Counted from the first letter of the stretch, positions 5,799 through 53,765 are shown. The stretch is 64,000 nucleotides of DNA from Candidatus Marinacidobacterales bacterium (GCA_965250115.1 CBDFNJ010000002.1:270966-334965); one strand, 5' to 3'. Numbers and translations are program-made. Notes: generated by a model not told the origin, from the sequence alone.

Positions 5799-6638
5799 GT
5801 GTCGTCGAACAATCGTTTCTTCTCCGGTCCCTCGCCAAGGCTATTCGGCCATCGGGGCGCGAGTGCGAGTGCCCCCGAGAATACCCTCGAGTCATTTCGC
5901 CTCGCTTGCGAGCAAGGCGCGTCCTATATCGAGCTCGACGTGCATTTGAGCTCGGATGGTGAGGTCGTCGTGATTCACGACCACTCCGTATCGCGGACGA
6001 CCGGTCGCCGCGGCAGAGTCGAAAACATGACGCTCGGCGAGCTTCGGAAGCTCGACGCGGGTTACAAATTCACGGGAGACCACGGGCGGACATTTCCCTA
6101 TCGGGATAGAGGCATCACGATCTCGACCCTGGACGAAGTGCTCGAGGCCTTTCCCGACCTTGGGATCGTAATCGAGCTCAAACGCACCCGCGAGCAACTC
6201 GTCATGGCTATGGCTCAGAAACTCCGCGCGCAGGACGCCGAGGCTCGGGTCATCGTCGCGTCGCACGAGCACCGTCTGATTGCCGGGTTTCGCGAACAAG
6301 CGCCTTTGGTCGCGACCAGCTTCAGCAAGGACGAGGTACGCGATTTCATCGGGCGGGTGCGAAGTGGCTCGCTCCAGGGTTATCGACCGCCGGGTGTCGC
6401 GTTCCAGGTTCCCGAGTACAAGGGACTGAGGCGCGTCGTCTCGAAACCGGTGATCGATGCCGTGCACCGCTTCGACGTCGAAGTGCACGTTTGGACCGTG
6501 AACGAGCCCGTACACATTTCCCGCCTGCTCGATTGGGGCGTTGACGGCATCATGACCGACGATCCGGCCCGTGCAGTCAGAAACGTCGACGCCCTTCGGG
6601 GGCTCGTTCTAGCTCGAGATACCAGTCATGCGCTTTGA
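5799..6638 (+). CDS. Glycerophosphodiester phosphodiesterase (GDPD family)
   Basis: FGHRGASASAPENTLESFRLACEQGASYIELDVHLSSDGEVVVIHD is the canonical GDPD N-terminal motif. Confidence 0.85.
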   Translation: MSSNNRFFSGPSPRLFGHRGASASAPENTLESFRLACEQGASYIELDVHLSSDGEVVVIHDHSVSRTTGRRGRVENMTLGELRKLDAGYKFTGDHGRTFPYRDRGITISTLDEVLEAFPDLGIVIELKRTREQLVMAMAQKLRAQDAEARVIVASHEHRLIAGFREQAPLVATSFSKDEVRDFIGRVRSGSLQGYRPPGVAFQVPEYKGLRRVVSKPVIDAVHRFDVEVHVWTVNEPVHISRLLDWGVDGIMTDDPARAVRNVDALRGLVLARDTSHAL

Positions 6639-7188
6639 GCCTTTTCGTCGCCTTGCCGCCTTCCTCTTCTTGTTCGCATTGGGTCTCAGTGGAGCGTCCT
6701 GTAACAAGAATCCTGGCCCACAGGTGGGAGAGGCCGTGCCCGATTTCGAGCTTCCCGATTTGGACGGCCGTTTGAAACGACTGGCGGAGCTCCGTGGACA
6801 AGTCGTCGTCCTCAACTATTGGGCCACCTGGTGTCCTCCCTGCGTCGACGAGATGCCCTCTCTCGAGAAGCTCCACCAGGCGCTCGCCGACGAGGGACTG
6901 GCAGTAGTGGCGATCTCGGTGGATGAGCGCTTCAGCGATATCGCAGACTTCGTGAAGTCTTACGATCTGACCTTCACGATCCTTCATGACAACGGGCGAA
7001 AGGTCGCTCGCGCTTATAGAGCGTTCAAGTATCCGGAGACCTACATCATCGATCGGGACGGCCGCCTGAAATCCAAGGTTATCGGGCCTAGAGACTGGGT
7101 GGCGCCCACTGTCATTCGAGACCTCGTCGAGCTCCTCAAGCGAAACCGAGAGCCCGGTACGCAGGAGGAGCCCGAGAGGGAGAGCTGA
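6628..7188 (+). CDS. TlpA/ResA-like thiol:disulfide oxidoreductase (thioredoxin fold), secreted or lipoprotein
   Basis: WATWCPPC active site. N-terminal signal sequence ending LSGASC. Confidence 0.85.
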   Translation: MRFEPFRRLAAFLFLFALGLSGASCNKNPGPQVGEAVPDFELPDLDGRLKRLAELRGQVVVLNYWATWCPPCVDEMPSLEKLHQALADEGLAVVAISVDERFSDIADFVKSYDLTFTILHDNGRKVARAYRAFKYPETYIIDRDGRLKSKVIGPRDWVAPTVIRDLVELLKRNREPGTQEEPERES

Positions 7189-7205
7189 GCGAGGCTAGCC
7201 AGGTC

Positions 7206-9466: not shown

Positions 9467-9844
9467 TTGGAAAAGGGAGTCGGGGAGGATTTCATGCACT
9501 CGGAAGTAGGCCAGCGTATCCGTGGGCTGCGTCAGAAAAAGGGGATGCTCCAGGAGGAGCTGGCGCGTAAGGCCGGCTTGTCACCCTCGGCGCTCTCGAA
9601 CTTCGAACAGGGGCGCCGCCGGACGTCCCTCGACTGGCTCCGGAAGATAAGTCTGGCGCTCGGAGTTCAGATGTCGGATTTGATTCCGGAGAGCAGGACC
9701 AGAAAGCCGCTCGCCGAGTCGAAGGATGAGGAGAAACTCCTGAGCCACTGGCGGAAGATCGGCAATCCCGACCTTCAGGACCAGCTCTTGGAAGTCGTCG
9801 AGACCTCGGCGAGCGCGGGTGCCCGAGCCGCGAAGACTCGCTAG
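9467..9844 (+). CDS. XRE-family helix-turn-helix transcriptional regulator (likely true start at the ATG near 9494, MHSEVG...)
   Basis: VGQRIRGLRQKKGMLQEELARKAGLSPSALSNFEQGRR is an HTH_XRE signature. Confidence 0.75.
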   Translation: MEKGVGEDFMHSEVGQRIRGLRQKKGMLQEELARKAGLSPSALSNFEQGRRRTSLDWLRKISLALGVQMSDLIPESRTRKPLAESKDEEKLLSHWRKIGNPDLQDQLLEVVETSASAGARAAKTR

Positions 9845-9913
9845 TCGTTCGTAACGACCCCTCACCCACCGCGCTGCGAGCGGGCTGAAGGCTCCTCCCC
9901 AGAGGGGAGAGGG

Positions 9914-10129
9914 TTAGCTGGTAGTGGCCTCGGATAGACGGTTAGCTCTTCGGTAGGCCGTATAGGCTGCGACGAAGTGGCATATCGCCCCGAGCGCGCC
10001 ACCGGTGCCGATCCATAGACCGGGCGTCACGATGAGCCAGAACAGCGCCCGGAAGAACTCACCGTTGTAGATCTGCCCGACGCCAGGAATCAGGAAGCTC
10101 AGGACCGCGGCAAGGCCCGGATCCTTCAC
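9914..10129 (-). CDS. TM2 domain small membrane protein
   Basis: LSFLIPGVGQIYNGE is typical of the TM2 (PF05154) family; two hydrophobic helices. Confidence 0.7.
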   Translation of the reverse strand: MKDPGLAAVLSFLIPGVGQIYNGEFFRALFWLIVTPGLWIGTGGALGAICHFVAAYTAYRRANRLSEATTS

Positions 10130-10136
10130 CTGCGCC

Positions 10137-10859
10137 TCAGTTCAGAAAGCCGCGGGTGAATACTTCCGTCAGCTCGTGCGCGAGCTGTTCCTCGGTCAAA
10201 GCACCATCCACTTTGTACCACTGGTATATCCAATTGAGCGCGCCCAGCAAAAAGAACGTCGCCGCCGTCGGGTCTAGCTCCTTGCGCGCCTTCCCGTCCT
10301 TCTGCAGTTGCCTAAGCAACGTTCTCACGTAGTCGATGTACTTCTTCTTCCGCTGCAGGATCTTTTCGCGATAGACGCCGGTGAGTGCGGTCCGCTCGTG
10401 CAGGACGATCGTGACTTCTCTGGGCCGAGTGAGCACCATGTGGACGTGGAGGCGAATGAGCTCGTAGAGAAGCTCCTTGGGATCCTTCAGTTTCGCCAGC
10501 GGCTCGACGACCGTCTCGTCGAGGAGGTCCAATCCGTAGTCAGTAATCAAGTAGAGCAGGTGCTCCTTGCTTTCGACGAAGTAGTAGAGGCCTGCCTTCG
10601 TGATGCCGACCTCGTCCGCGATGTCGCTCATCGACGTCGAGTCGTAGCCCTTCACGCAGAACAAGTGGGCCGCTTTCGCGAGAATCTGATCGCGCCGGTC
10701 GTTCAGAGGTGGTCGTCCCGCCTTGCCGCTTTCCGCTTTCTTGTTGACCACCAGCTCTCCTCGTCCCGTGGATTCTGTCAGGCCGAGGCTTCCCAGGCAA
10801 ACCCCACCTGCGTTACCGGCGGCGCCGACGCCCGGCCGGCTGACAGAGATCCGGTCCAC
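10137..10859 (-). CDS. TetR/AcrR family transcriptional regulator (true start probably internal, about 10755, GTG)
   Basis: RRDQILAKAAHLFCVKGYDSTSMSDIADEVGITKAGLYYFVESKEHL is a TetR_N HTH. Confidence 0.8.
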   Translation of the reverse strand: MDRISVSRPGVGAAGNAGGVCLGSLGLTESTGRGELVVNKKAESGKAGRPPLNDRRDQILAKAAHLFCVKGYDSTSMSDIADEVGITKAGLYYFVESKEHLLYLITDYGLDLLDETVVEPLAKLKDPKELLYELIRLHVHMVLTRPREVTIVLHERTALTGVYREKILQRKKKYIDYVRTLLRQLQKDGKARKELDPTAATFFLLGALNWIYQWYKVDGALTEEQLAHELTEVFTRGFLN

Positions 10860-10880
10860 TGAATCGTGAGGCTATTAGTA

Positions 10881-11516
10881 CTACGAGGTAGCCTCGAAGA
10901 TTTCTTGCTCGAGAGCCCGGCGCCGCGCCTCGTCGAGACCGAGTGCCGACGCCAGGTTTTCGAGCCAGGCCTTTTCGAGTTCGGTTGTCTCGGAGTCCGC
11001 AAGAACCACAAGGGCACCGAATCGAAAGAGCATCTCCTTTTCGTCCGGGTCCGCGACGCCGGCGCCGAGCTCGTTCGGCGACGGCGGGAGCACCATGTCC
11101 TTGTGGATCTGCTTGATTTGACCCGGGGCGAGGCCCGATTCACCGAGGCGGTTCTCGATGAGTTTTTTCTCCTCCGCGTGCATCTCCCCGTCGGCGAGGG
11201 CGCCGGCTACCATCGTCCTCACGATCCCGAACAACAAAGCTCGAGGGACCTCGGGCTCGGCTGCGACGGCCCGGGGGATCGGCGGGGGAGGTGGCACCGT
11301 GGTTCCAGGAACGGGCGGTATCGGTGGCAATGGCGGCGGCACCTTCGGTGTCTGTGAAGACGACGTTCCCATCTTGTCGGCTGCGAGGGTTCCGGCAATA
11401 GCGGCGCCGCCGAGCAGCACGAGATTCTTTCCGCCGATCGCTCGCACGAAGGGGCGCGCGTTGAAGCCGGTGGAGCTCTTGATTAGATCCGAAACGAGGC
11501 GATCCAGAAAAGCCAT
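10881..11516 (-). CDS. DUF533/TerB-like (tellurite-resistance-like) protein
   Basis: Pro-rich linker, then C-terminal GALADGEMHAEEKKLIENRLGE...LVVLADSETTELEKAWLENLASALGLD, which is a TerB-like helical domain. Confidence 0.65.
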   Translation of the reverse strand: MAFLDRLVSDLIKSSTGFNARPFVRAIGGKNLVLLGGAAIAGTLAADKMGTSSSQTPKVPPPLPPIPPVPGTTVPPPPPIPRAVAAEPEVPRALLFGIVRTMVAGALADGEMHAEEKKLIENRLGESGLAPGQIKQIHKDMVLPPSPNELGAGVADPDEKEMLFRFGALVVLADSETTELEKAWLENLASALGLDEARRRALEQEIFEATS

Positions 11517-50113: not shown

Positions 50114-51485
50114 GTGAGTTTGCTCTTGACCCCCTGGAGTCTTGCCCTGGTCTTCGCGGCGGGGACGCGCGTCCTCGTGATGCCGTTCGAGAACCTCTCG
50201 GACGATGCGTGCACGATTGGAAGGGAAGTGCCTTCGAGGAGGCAATCTCGTCCCATCTCGAGGCGGCGGGCCATGAGGTCGTGGACGTTCAGACGCGCAA
50301 CCGCCATCTCGTCAATCAAGGTTTCGATCCAGCGCAGCCCGTGACGCGGGCGACCGCCATCTCGTCAATCAAGGTTTCGATCCAGCGCAGCCCGTGACGC
50401 GGGCGACCGCCATCGTGCTCGCGCGAGACCTCCGGGCGGGTCGGCTCGTTGTCGGCAGCTTTCAGTCGAGTGAGGATCGGCTCCAAGCCACGGCGCGCGT
50501 CGTCGATCTGTCGGAAGGGGTAACGATTGGAGTCGTCGAGGACTTCGCGAAACGCGATGAGCTCACGAGCCTCGCCAATCAGATCGCGAAGAACATATTC
50601 CGACTCGAGCGGGACCGGGTGCCCACGGGATTCGACGAGAGCGTCGAGAGGCGCGCGAAGCTCGCGCCGGCCGCTCTCGAGGCGAGCGCCCACGCGCGTC
50701 TGAGCATCGAGCGAGACGAGCAGCGAGAACACCTCGAACAAGCCGTTGCTATCGAGCCTCGTTACCTCGAAGCCCGTGTCATGTTGGGAAGCCTCTTGCT
50801 CGAGGAGGGCAAGGCGAGGGAAGCGATCGACGTGCTCGTTGCAGCAAGAGACGGTGGTGGGAGTGACGCGAAAGCGTACTTCGGTCTCGGTGTCGCCTAC
50901 CTTTCCGTCGGTGAGCCCACGGCAGCTTACGAGATCTTTCAGAATTTGACCGAGCTCGATGACAAAAGAGCCGCAGCCCACAACAATCTCGGCGTGGCCG
51001 CCATGCGGTTGGGCTTGCTGGATGAATCCATCAAGGCCTTCGAGTGCGCCGTCGAGCGCGGCGGCGTTGGAGCGAGCTACTTTTTCAACCTGGGCTTCGC
51101 GTCGTGGCGGGCAGGCAAGGGTGCTCGGGCGCTCGAGCTCTTCGAAAAAGTGGCGGAGGCGCGTCCTTTGGACGGTGAAGCTTACTTCATGCTCGCGGCG
51201 GCGGCGGCGTCCCAGGCGGAGCCCGAAAAAGCAGAAACGATGCACGCCACATCCTTGCTGCTCTCTCCCAACCTGGCCGATGTGGATGCCGCGACGGTCG
51301 AGGGGTGGGAGCGCGTGGTTTTCGCGGAGGAGGAGAGTCGCGATATCGACTCGGTGGTAGCGCTCGAGGAGGACGTCGCCGCTTTGGTGGAGATTCTCGA
51401 TGCTCGCGAGTACCGCGCGACGGGCCGACTCGATGACGCGGTCTTGTTGCTTCAAAAGAGGGTCTACGCGGATTCGTGTGGGTAA
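50114..51485 (+). pseudogene. TolB_N-like domain + TPR-repeat protein, disrupted three ways: a frameshift near 50204..50216, a 53-bp tandem duplication at 50301..50406, and interruption of the 3' end by the ISL3-type element. The C-terminal remainder is at about 53460..53731.
   Basis: Frame 1: signal peptide plus VLVMPFENLSDDA. Frame 2: WKGSAFEEAISSHLEAAGHEVVD. Frame 3: ...IVLARDLRAGRLVVGSFQSSEDRLQATARVVDLSEGVTIG, then the TPR repeats. Downstream of the IS the frame continues ...ELADVLQEAGELDRAATELAIVLWNEP.... Confidence 0.6.
50301..50406. repeat. 53-bp perfect tandem duplication (2 units) inside the TolB_N/TPR gene
   Basis: ccgccatctcgtcaatcaaggtttcgatccagcgcagcccgtgacgcgggcga appears twice; 53 is not a multiple of 3. 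Confidence 0.9.
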
Positions 51486-52018
51486 GTTCTGACGGAAAAA
51501 CAGTGTAACTCATTGTGTGGAAAAGGTATCGAGTACTTCATCAGGTGCTGAAAAGTGGTCCATTTTTAGGATAGGCTAACCGAGTGAAAAATTCCCAGTC
51601 GATCCGCTCGCTGTTTGCGCTGCCAGGTTTCGTGGTGTGCCGGATTGAAGGGTCTATTCGGTGACCGATACGCCCGCGTCATCCAGCTCAAGAGGCGAAA
51701 AAAACAGCTGTGTGCTCTTACTGTGGGCAACGATGCCGGGGGCGCTATGACAAGCAAGTGTGCCGGGTCCGCGACCTGTCGTTGGCAGGCTGGCGGATCT
51801 ATCTGGAATACGAGCGTTGGCGCGTCAACTGTCCTGGGTGCGGCGGTTTGCATGTAGAACACCTGGACTGGCTGGCGAACAACTCGCGCTACACCTAGCG
51901 TTTTGCGACGCATGTGGGCAAGCTGTGCCGGACAAGGCGGTGGCCGAGATGGAACGTCTGACCCTGCCCGGGTTTTGTGGACACCAACCGAGGCGCGACA
52001 ATGCGCCTGGAGGCGTCC

Positions 52019-52315
52019 ATGGGAAAGCGACGACGAAGGAAGTTCACGGGGGAGTTCAAGAAGGAAGCGGTCCGGCTGTTCAAAGCGGGCGAGCGCAGCA
52101 TCGGCCAGGTCGCTAAGGAACTGGACCTGACGGAATCAGCCCTTCGAAACTGGGTGAAACAATACGAGGTTGATCACGGTGAAGGTCCACGCGAGGCTCT
52201 GACGACGGCGGAACGTGATGAGCTCCGTTCGCTGCGACGTCGAGTACGCACGTTGGAGCAAGAGCGAGAAATATTAAAAAAGGCGGCGGCCTTCTTCGCG
52301 AAGGAAAGCGAATGA
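52019..52315 (+). CDS. IS3-family transposase OrfA (HTH plus leucine zipper)
   Basis: MGKRRRRKFTGEFKKEAVRLFKAGERSIGQVAKELDLTESALRNWVKQY... Confidence 0.85.
   Translation: MGKRRRRKFTGEFKKEAVRLFKAGERSIGQVAKELDLTESALRNWVKQYEVDHGEGPREALTTAERDELRSLRRRVRTLEQEREILKKAAAFFAKESE
52272..52278 (+). promoter_or_regulatory. Programmed -1 ribosomal frameshift heptamer A_AAA_AAG joining orfA and orfB
   Basis: tt A AAA AAG gc in the orfA frame. The -1 frame continues KKGGGLLREGKRMRFKFIHAER..., which is OrfB. Confidence 0.7.
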
Positions 52316-53167
52316 GATTCAAGTTCATTCACGCGGAGCGGGCCAACTATCCGGTGCGGGTGATGTGCCGAGTCCTGAGGGTATCGACCAGAGGCTACTA
52401 CGCTCAGATGAAGCGCGCGCCCAGCAGGCGACAGTGTGAGGATGGGAAGCTGAAGCTGCGCATCCAAGCGATCCACGCCCATAGCCGTGGTACCTACGGC
52501 AGGGAGCGTGTACGTCGCCAGCTTGACGGGGAGAACGTCGAGGTGGGCAAGCAGCGAGTGGCACGGCTGATGCGTGAGATGGGCCTGCAGGGCCTGCCCA
52601 GCAAGCGTTTTCGCCGCACGACCGACAGCAAGCACGATCGCCCTATCGCGCCCAACGTGCTCGGCCGGCACTTCGAAGCCGAACGAGCGAACCAGTTCTG
52701 GGTGACGGACATAACCTTCATCCGGACTTGGGAAGGCTGGCTCTACTTGGCGGTCATCCTCGATCTGTTCTCGCGTCGTGTCGTCGGCTGGGCGATGCAG
52801 TCCCACCTGCGCGCAGAGCTTGCTCTCGAGGCGCTTCACATGGCCTTGGGGCGCCATCTGCCTGGAAGTGGCTTGGTGCATCATTCAGACCGTGGTACTC
52901 AATACGCGGCTGCGTCTTACCAGGCCGTGCTCGATGAGCCGCAAGGGTAATTGCTGGGACAACGCCGTGAGCGAAAGCTTCTTCGGTACGCTCAAGACCG
53001 AGCTCGTCAACCGGCGGAGCTGGCCAACCCGGCGGAGCGCCAAAGACGCCGTCGCCAGCTACATCGAAGGCTTCTACAACCCGCATCGACTTCACTCGTC
53101 GCTCGGCTACGTGAGCCCGATGCTGTTCGAGCAATTACACGCTCTTAAATCTGCTGATGCGAGATGA
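52312..53167 (+). pseudogene. IS3-family transposase OrfB (rve DDE core) with an internal frame break near 52927..52950
   Basis: ...HSDRGTQYAAASYQAVLDEPQG* in one frame and CSMSRKGNCWDNAVSESFFGTLKTE... in another. The 13-nt stretch gtgctcgatgagc is read in both frames, consistent with a deletion between short direct repeats. Confidence 0.7.
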
Positions 53168-53765
53168 TCAACCCGTCCACTTTTCCCGGGCAAGGTCACC
53201 TGGACTGGCTGGCGAACAACTCGCGCTACACCTAGCGTTTTGCGACGCATGTGGGCAAGCTGTGCCGGACAAGGCGGTGGCCGAGATGGAACGTCTGCGC
53301 CTCCTAGTTGAAGGGGTCAACAACAAAATCCGTGTGCTGCAACGACGCGCCTACGGCTATCGCGACGAGGAATATCTCAAGCTGAAGATCGTGGCGGCAT
53401 TCCTTCCGCCATTACCCAGAAATGCCGTCTTCAACCCACACGAATCCGCGTAGACCCTCAAAAGAGTCTGTATCGGGATCCGAGCGCGAATGAGCTCAGG
53501 CGAGAGCTTGCGGATGTGCTCCAGGAGGCGGGGGAGCTCGACCGGGCGGCCACCGAGCTTGCCATCGTCTTGTGGAACGAGCCGACGTGTGATGCCCACG
53601 TGGAACTGGCTCAGATCTTCGTCGAGCTGGACGAGCCGGGCAGAGCTCGTGAGCAAATCGAGATGGCGCTCGCGCCCGATCACGGCGGGGCTTTGTTGCT
53701 TAGCGACGCCTTACCGGTCGCGGTGCCGTAGTAGCACTTCCGCCCTTTCCATGTCTTGAGCTAGG

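Follow-up and report, generated by a model that had tools for sequence, protein, structure and literature searches.

An IS3-family element flanked by a 97-bp direct duplication inside an ISL3-family deletion derivative of Candidatus Marinacidobacterales

Introduction

In the IS1634/IS1549 group of insertion sequences (ISs), long and variable target duplications, from tens to hundreds of bp, are the rule. A different architecture, in which one IS sits between two direct copies of a chromosomal segment (Dup-IS-Dup), has been described for IS481 in P. fluorescens, where the IS lies at the center of a 60-kb duplication and has no target duplication (Ngan et al. 2024, PMC11708052), and for unflanked IS1 amplifications with a median of ~26 kb, which were validated by long reads (Yelin & Kishony 2026, PMC13423834). 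Here we describe a much smaller structure in a 64,000-nucleotide stretch of a Candidatus Marinacidobacterales bacterium (GCA_965250115.1 CBDFNJ010000002.1:270966-334965; hereafter the window). A gene encoding a tetratricopeptide repeat (TPR) protein is interrupted by a deletion derivative of an ISL3-family IS, which in turn harbors an IS3-family element flanked by two copies of a 97-bp segment of the derivative.

The locus has the architecture by which both studies define Dup-IS-Dup (PMC11708052, PMC13423834). As in the published cases, a single IS joins two different ancestral positions, the duplicated interval is found as a direct copy on either side of the IS, the outer borders carry no IS, and a normal target duplication is absent; moreover, the structure can revert scarlessly when the two copies recombine. 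They differ greatly in scale, with an interval of 97 bp compared to a median of ~26 kb for IS1 or 60 kb for IS481, and also in the IS family. In addition, the structure in the window is natural, presumably neutral and located inside another IS, rather than a selected amplification. Compared to elements of the IS1634/IS1549 type, it shares the direct repeats that flank the IS but differs in having an IS3-type transposase.

Results and discussion

The IS3-family element joins two target positions 97 bp apart

The inner element (51959..53198, plus strand) is a 1240-bp defective variant of an IS3-family IS, with the left and right terminal inverted repeats (IRs) at 51959-51982 and 53175-53198, respectively. 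Its ends, TGACCCTGCCCGGGTTTTGTGGAC at 51959 and TGACCTTGCCCGGGAAAAGTGGAC at 53198 on the other strand, are unique in the window, with zero matches expected, and constitute imperfect IRs of ~24 bp with TG...CA tips, the same ends as in the sister copies. The nested architecture put forward in a preliminary description of this DNA, with an IS3-family element of these coordinates and ends held by an ISL3-family derivative within a TPR gene, is borne out by the repeats, the protein domains and the comparison of copies; the inner element additionally proved to be defective itself.

A perfect direct repeat of 101 bp surrounds the element (51860-51960 identical to 53197-53297, at an offset of 1337). 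At its borders, 2 + 2 bp coincide with the IS tips TG and CA, leaving a net duplicated target of 97 bp, namely 51862..51958 and 53199..53295, both on the plus strand. The second copy is the same as the first, including a 10-bp deletion typical of the derivative's subfamily, which is located at 51925/51926 in the first copy. The preliminary description had correctly recognized a direct repeat of ~100 bp in place of a target duplication of 3-4 bp, but it gave the length as 99 bp, in two intervals shifted by 2 nt relative to each other.

The left end of the IS3-family element is joined after ...GGAACGTC, and the right end before CCTGGACTGG..., a target position 97 bp further upstream. The observed junctions, marked by slashes, are GGAACGTC/TGACCCTG on the left and CAAGGTCA/CCTGGACT on the right. 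The flanking triplets, a left GTC and a right CCT, do not form a 3-bp duplication; the GTC resembles a normal target triplet of the element, and the CCT does not match it. By contrast, eight independent sister insertions, all the complete ones, are bordered by 3-bp duplications (GAC, ACT, ACT, CTT, GTT, GGT, GTT and GTC), and one of these eight sits inside a full-length ISL3 copy. Because the sister insertions make 3 bp and the transposase is of the IS3 type, the 97-bp duplication is exceptional rather than inherent to the element. No second direct repeat abutting a complete IS was found in the window and all loci fetched from IS-rich relatives (~0.75 Mb). Other ISs nested in ISL3 copies show short overlaps, of 9 bp for an IS256-type element (L017) and 2 bp for another IS3-family element (L056), and a literature search on long target duplications in the IS3 family gave no result.

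Comparison with other copies showed that the ISL3 derivative inserted first and the IS3-family element second. The full-length (1384-bp) and derivative (671- and 661-bp) copies have the common junction GAACGTCTG-CGCCTCCTA-GTTGAAGG, with one 97-bp segment and no IS3, and the derivative therefore predates the IS3 insertion. As the single segment is ancestral, the duplication is tied to IS3. The opposite descent, of the derivative family from the Dup-IS-Dup of the window by recombination, is unlikely, because the 661-/671-bp copies in several genomes have single nucleotide polymorphisms (SNPs) of their own and no IS3. A pre-existing tandem duplication with the IS3 on its junction was rejected as well: slippage at GAAC gives GGAAC/ACCTGG, unlike the flanks of the IS, and an IS3 insertion there would add a 3-bp duplication, which is absent. 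A cruciform or hairpin uniting both sites is ruled out by the lack of hairpin potential in the 97-bp segment (z = +0.65).

Proposed origin of the duplication

We propose three successive events, none of them adaptive. A 661-bp derivative, mobilised in trans by full-length ISL3 copies, would have inserted into the TPR gene and generated an 8-bp duplication of TCAAAAGA. A copy of the IS3-family element would then have landed in the derivative via copy-out/paste-in transposition, its 23-bp deletion in orfB having arisen either before or after this insertion. Finally, the two 3'-OH ends of the excised IS would have attacked the target at two positions separated by 97 bp, which lay either in the same, looped duplex or in the two sister duplexes that trail a replication fork, and repair synthesis would have copied the 97-bp interval twice. 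Aberrant transposition, one of the origins considered in the preliminary description, is the best candidate, and we infer, tentatively and at somewhat less than an even chance, that the duplication came from one aberrant paste-in in which the IS ends were joined 97 bp apart. With still more reserve, an IS3-family transposase may be able to complete integration in one event with its ends 97 bp apart, resulting in a micro Dup-IS-Dup that is scarlessly reversible.

Several points weigh against a single aberrant paste-in. It is a single example, and none of the sister IS3 copies has a long duplication. To our knowledge, capture of target sites 97 bp apart is not known for any IS3-family transpososome. 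The published precedents concern other IS families (IS1 and IS481) and amplicons 2-3 orders of magnitude longer (PMC11708052, PMC13423834), and their mechanism is itself unsettled. Moreover, the ISL3 bases flanking the block repeat the IS tip dinucleotides CA and TG, a coincidence with a chance of ~1/256 that transposase strand transfer does not explain. Strand transfer does not explain either why the IS3-family element, which lies in the same orientation as the derivative, has its left junction only 3-9 bp from the derivative's internal deletion junction. In addition, the two identical 97-bp copies are no proof of an in-situ duplication, because the other 661-bp copies L071, L078 and L081 are identical over this segment too.

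The dinucleotide matches are the starting point of an alternative without transposase, in which an excised linear IS3 or a copied template was captured by broken or stalled DNA. Microhomology-mediated end joining or template switching would have used the 2-nt TG and CA matches, and a 101-bp overlap of two chromosomal ends would have become the duplication. The CA just before the block and the TG just after it indeed match the IS tips and make up the 101-bp repeat (at the chance of ~1/256), but 2-bp microhomology is weak evidence and was noticed post hoc, and both junctions lie exactly at the IS3 termini that the transposase uses. Capture is improbable in our view; linear forms of IS3-family elements (IS3/IS911) are also short-lived intermediates. 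In its favor, 53 bp of the TPR gene are duplicated in tandem with a 9-bp repeat at the borders, so that slippage-type events do occur in this lineage, and IS insertion into pre-existing breaks has been proposed (PMC11708052).

Homologous recombination in two steps, via gene conversion or integration of a circle, might also have produced the structure, a route that we regard as less likely than the single paste-in but as a serious rival. In the conversion variant, a normal IS3 insertion with a 3-bp duplication (GTC) at the downstream end of the block in the window derivative would be the start, a second IS3 in the same orientation would have inserted normally (CCT) in another derivative copy, on the upstream border of the block, and a conversion tract running from inside IS3 into the 155-bp right arm would copy the donor's right junction to the window locus. 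In the circle variant, an IS3 circle with the 97-bp block between its ends, originating from a copy-out where the attacking end struck 97 nt rather than 3 nt outside the other end, would enter an empty derivative by RecA recombination in the block. The homology is at hand, as both IS3 and the derivative are multi-copy and near-identical among copies. IS3 is also repeatedly located in or beside ISL3: inside a full-length copy (L070/L077), 13 bp from the end of a derivative (L071), abutting a derivative (L072) and 101 bp away from one (L078), in addition to another IS3/ISL3 association, P0096, on the same 4.12-Mb contig as P0059, the recorded product of the interrupted TPR ORF. The left flank GTC equals a typical target triplet, and the 1263-bp (L076) and 1240-bp (L069) forms of IS3 at one orthologous site could result from gene conversion.

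Nevertheless, this route needs two or three rare events, among them a second same-orientation insertion within 97 bp in a family that accounts for ~0.1% of the genome, and a conversion with just 155 bp of homology to bound it. The predicted normal junctions are CAAGGTCA/GTCTGCGCC at the downstream site and GTAGAACACCT/TGACCCTG at the upstream site (...GTAGAACACCT/TGACCC...GGTCA/CCTGGACTGG), and neither was seen among 14 IS3 loci and ~45 ISL3 loci. Likewise, exact look-up of the 98-aa junction open reading frame (ORF) and protein search found no protein elsewhere that spans the junction of IS3 and block; the search returned ordinary derivative ORFs only, none of which covers the IS3 tip. The CA/TG coincidence is unexplained here as well. 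A single reciprocal crossover, the simplest form of the recombination between two derivative copies suggested in the preliminary description, is excluded: the flanks are syntenic with locus L080 and the 8-bp duplication is intact. The same two observations exclude a single crossover event involving IS3 copies from different loci. Gene conversion is the part of that suggestion that stays as a rival, and the choice between a single aberrant paste-in and two-step recombination rests on parsimony.

An error of the consensus or the graph in a repeat-rich metagenome assembly could in principle have created the second 97-bp copy or misplaced the IS3, in line with the assembly collapse raised in the preliminary description. 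Since the insertion-fused TPR ORF P0059 is recorded on a 4.12-Mb contig, the assembly carrying the insertion has long-read-level contiguity. The multi-Mb contigs of related assemblies traverse dozens of identical IS copies, which is the behavior of long reads, and the two repeats plus the IS3 (~1.4 kb) fit within single long reads. At the IS termini, the junctions are exact to the base, and the outer element, otherwise intact, has a perfect 8-bp duplication around it. We thus consider an artefact improbable, even though both elements are high-copy repeats in these genomes and a second assembly with the same junctions was not found by the junction-ORF look-up and protein search.

The outer element is a non-autonomous ISL3-family derivative

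The outer element (51460..53457, plus strand) is a 661-bp deletion derivative of an ISL3-family IS, grown to 1998 bp by the IS3 copy (1240 bp) and the 97-bp duplication inside it. Repeat search detected a perfect inverted repeat with 26-nt arms (51458-51483 and 53434-53459), of which the IR proper comprises 24 nt, GGGTCTACGCGGATTCGTGTGGGT, as revealed by comparison with ~45 other copies. The left IR occupies 51460..51483 on the plus strand and provides the truncated TPR ORF with its final codons and stop, and the right IR, found by both repeat search and pattern scan, occupies 53434..53457 on the minus strand. Within the window, GGGTCTACGCGGATTCGTGTGGGT is present only at 51460 (plus) and 53457 (minus), with no chance matches in shuffles. 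The IRs are bracketed by two copies of the 8-bp target duplication TCAAAAGA (51452..51459 and 53458..53465), which is a single copy in the empty site of L080. The perfect IRs and the direct repeat reported earlier hold, with the IR now set at 24 nt and the duplication at 8 bp; the supposed ninth duplicated base, with its 1-nt offset on the right, is actually the first G of the IR.

Two remnants of the transposase, N-terminal and C-terminal as described before, are left. The N-terminal zinc ribbon (51710..51898, plus strand) was assigned by a match to Pfam Zn_ribbon_ISL3 (E=4.3e-4; 21.1 bits, under the curated cut-off of 25.5) and by alignment to full-length copies, and ends at the in-frame TAG at 51896-51898 that had been noted previously, where full-length copies have CAG. 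The C-terminal remnant is a 55-aa ORF (53286..53453, plus strand; MERLRLLVEGVNNK...) that scores 29.2 bits against DDE_Tnp_ISL3, over the cut-off of 23. Alignment of the copies places the internal deletion junction at 53298..53304 (plus strand), with full-length positions ~515 to 1229 absent. The interior loss amounts to ~713 bp plus 10 and 2 bp (1384 to 661 bp), i.e. ~0.72 kb instead of the ~1 kb estimated initially, and hits the DDE core. With this core loss, the in-frame TAG and frameshifts, the window copy contains no intact transposase gene, and the outer element is a non-autonomous derivative of an ISL3-family IS.

Without the IS3 and one 97-bp copy, the window copy measures 661 bp. In this collapsed form it is 99.0-99.4% identical to the 661-bp copies L071, L078, L081 and L083, with 4-7 substitutions, and it has the deletion junction and the CAG-to-TAG change in common with the 671-bp copies.

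The derivative belongs to an abundant MITE-like family

Full-length elements of this ISL3 family are 1384 bp long, with more than 20 copies at ~99% identity within one genome. Full-length copies that are ~96% identical in DNA encode a 406-aa transposase, which scores 321 bits on NCBIfam NF033550 (ISL3 family; cut-off 180), in support of the family previously assigned to the outer IRs. The outer element shares with the ISL3 family (NF033550; Zn_ribbon_ISL3/HTH_Tnp_ISL3/DDE_Tnp_ISL3) the 24-bp IRs starting with GG and the AT-rich 8-bp duplication, and perfect AT-rich duplications of this size surround 37 of the 45 other copies listed. Like the MITE-like deletion derivatives of ISL3 elements, the window copy retains the two ends without the catalytic core and is a member of a high-copy family. 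As ISL3 transposases on sequenced plasmids share at most ~40% identity with the full-length transposase, the outer IS is an unnamed ISL3 member.

The 671-bp derivatives lack positions ~515-1229, and the 661-bp subfamily has further deletions of 10 and 2 bp. At least 20 derivative copies of 661-673 bp are located at different sites with 8-bp duplications, and the exact product of the 55-aa C-terminal remnant is indexed in 371 blocks of a public collection. The derivative is thus a highly successful family resembling miniature inverted-repeat transposable elements (MITEs), very abundant in Candidatus Marinacidobacterales assemblies in its 661- and 671-bp subfamilies; such a multi-copy family had been anticipated, with a predicted length of 657 bp that is close to the actual ones. 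Like MITEs, it possesses both IS ends, no functional transposase, target duplications and many dispersed, near-identical copies. It differs from them in exceeding, at 661/671 bp, the size usually called MITE, and in keeping recognisable coding remnants.

A scan of species-representative genomes matched the ISL3 IR, as a 23-nt pattern, at no fewer than 57 loci; among the matches listed, these are mostly metagenome-assembled genomes (MAGs) of Candidatus Marinacidobacterales, with a few from Gammaproteobacteria and Gemmatimonadales. The exact 23-nt terminal repeat occurs in L004, L005, L007, L029, L035, L038, L042, L043 and L049, which belong to Gammaproteobacteria (Granulosicoccus, Nitrococcus, Thiohalobacterales and Ectothiorhodospiraceae) and Gemmatimonadales MAGs. 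The alignable element bodies at these nine loci are 71-80% identical to the full-length copy, and the ends of the ISL3 element are conserved across phyla.

Two further copies vary in the interior. The derivative at L041 (6776-7279, minus strand) has an in-frame internal deletion and no TAG, resulting in a 167-aa ORF that fuses the ISL3 zinc ribbon and helix-turn-helix to the C-terminal tail; this ORF could be a truncated DNA-binding protein that acts as a regulator or inhibitor. The full-length copy at L023 (5352-6644) has an 87-bp internal deletion (positions 415-501) inside the segment that is duplicated in the window, but the end points differ, and therefore it is not the reciprocal product of the window duplication.

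The IS3-family element is defective

The inner element consists of two overlapping genes. The intact orfA (52019..52315, plus strand) encodes 98 residues matching Pfam HTH_Tnp_1 at 55.7 bits, and the broken orfB (52312..53167, plus strand), with HTH_21 and an rve DDE domain, overlaps it in the -1 frame; an A AAA AAG heptamer for -1 frameshifting is located at 52276-52282. Pfam matches in the element comprise HTH_Tnp_1, HTH_21, rve and rve_3. The first frame of orfB spans 52312-52950, and the region of the catalytic glutamate goes on in another frame to 53167. The break is a 23-bp deletion between two copies of the 12-bp repeat GTGCTCGATGAG (now at 52927-52938), which shifts the frame ahead of the catalytic glutamate, and for this reason the window IS3 cannot make its own transposase.

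A protein identical to OrfA is encoded on at least 27 contigs, and 14 loci encoding it were recovered. The window copy is 99.7% identical to those of L069 and L072, and 92% identical to that of L033. The sister elements have three length forms, of 1263 bp, of 1236 bp with an in-frame 27-bp deletion, and of 1240 bp with the same 23-bp deletion as the window copy. An intact sister OrfB scores 347 bits on NF033516 (IS3 family; cut-off 160) and shares at most 53.5% identity with plasmid-borne IS3 transposases; a metagenome scan with the IS3 IR pattern returned just distant IS3 relatives on short contigs. Exact-protein look-ups with the 212-aa OrfB fragment, RecG, a 195-aa neighbor, P0059 and P0096 gave no hits. 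The inner element shares with the IS3 family (NF033516) the TG...CA ends, the overlap of orfA and orfB, and the A AAA AAG -1 frameshift signal. It is a member of the IS3 family, whereas its insertion here is atypical: the window copy differs by the frameshifting 23-bp deletion in orfB and by a flanking duplication of 97 bp rather than 3 bp.

The sister loci provided further observations on this IS. Across the IS3 copies, the SNP patterns give no clear sign of recombinants. At L069 (198-1437) and L076 (5959-7221), the 1240-bp and 1263-bp forms occupy the same orthologous site, with identical flanks and the ACT duplication, and the 1240-bp form at L069 has two SNPs in common with the L072 copy at a different locus. 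The length difference stems either from slippage, recurring at the 12-bp repeats, or from gene conversion of one IS copy by another. At L070 (5789-7674) and L077 (5789-8488), IS3 is inserted, oppositely oriented and flanked by a normal 3-bp duplication, in a full-length ISL3 at position ~1215-1220; this type of ISL3::IS3 junction recurs in several assemblies, and P0096 puts one on the 4.12-Mb contig of P0059. Moreover, L066/L067 has two inverted IS3 copies (5941-7202 and 9829-11090) with identical flanks on both sides, bracketing ~2.6 kb that include a protein kinase gene fused to IS5-type fragments, which represents either an inverted duplication or a composite-like arrangement.

The interrupted TPR gene was already decaying

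The 5' part of the TPR gene (50114..51459, plus strand), assigned by Pfam TPR matches and tblastn of the 521-aa ortholog P0001, is already a pseudogene. The 3' part (53466..53731, plus strand) is in frame with it after removal of the element and one copy of the target duplication. The ORF 50394..51485 terminates within the left IR, as the preliminary description had it, and its 363-aa product ends with ...QKRVYADSCG. The recorded protein P0059 (363 aa) equals this product save for M instead of V at the GTG start, and includes the ...QKRVYADSCG tail read from the IR. Joining 50394-51459 to 53466-53731 reconstructs one open frame that shares 97% identity with the intact P0001 over 100% coverage. 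L080, the locus that encodes P0001 on a 5.87-Mb contig, shares synteny with the window to either side, at ~95-97% DNA identity, and its empty site reads ...TTGCTTCAAAAGAGTCTGTATCGG..., with a single TCAAAAGA. The frame thus continues across the empty site in relatives, exactly at the junction predicted beforehand (...LLLQK/SLYRDPSANELRREL...), and the closer relatives P0058 and P0062 have an intact TPR gene as well.

Along the 5' part, the tblastn alignment of P0001 changes frame twice. Two lesions absent from L080 were found there: one base pair is deleted near 50207, and 53 bp are duplicated in tandem at 50300-50405. The tandem unit (2.2 copies at 100% identity by Tandem Repeats Finder; 50300-50352 and 50353-50405) is bounded by the 9-bp repeat ACCGCCATC. 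Near the 3' end, the gene has a 6-bp in-frame deletion that is also absent from L080. The TPR gene is already decaying beyond the insertion of the element and carries independent lesions. In another genome, the TPR ortholog P0060 (361 aa, on a 7.3-Mb contig) is truncated elsewhere, at ...KAETM/CLGA, which suggests a second, independent disruption of the gene.

Implications

The two elements belong to well-known families, ISL3 and IS3, as unnamed members; nested ISs, deletion derivatives mobilised in trans and decaying genes are commonplace in IS-rich genomes. The locus is mostly ordinary IS-on-IS nesting in a decaying gene of an IS-laden uncultured acidobacterium, and genome annotators of Candidatus Marinacidobacterales should expect the 661/671-bp derivative together with its 55-aa pseudo-ORF. 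The sole unusual feature is the 97-bp flanking duplication, which has structural precedents at larger scale and represents a natural, very small instance of an architecture with an IS at the center of a duplication, whose mechanism is currently debated. A Dup-IS-Dup insertion of this kind can be lost scarlessly by recombination between the flanking copies. If the structure in the window is the product of a single event, it speaks for the ability of one transpososome to place its two ends at separate target sites. Unflanked IS-joined duplications would then extend to a new IS family and to a sub-100-bp scale; at this scale, it would be more difficult to apply models that bring distant loci together by recombination or a succession of replicative transpositions, and target capture at two sites by one transpososome would be favored.

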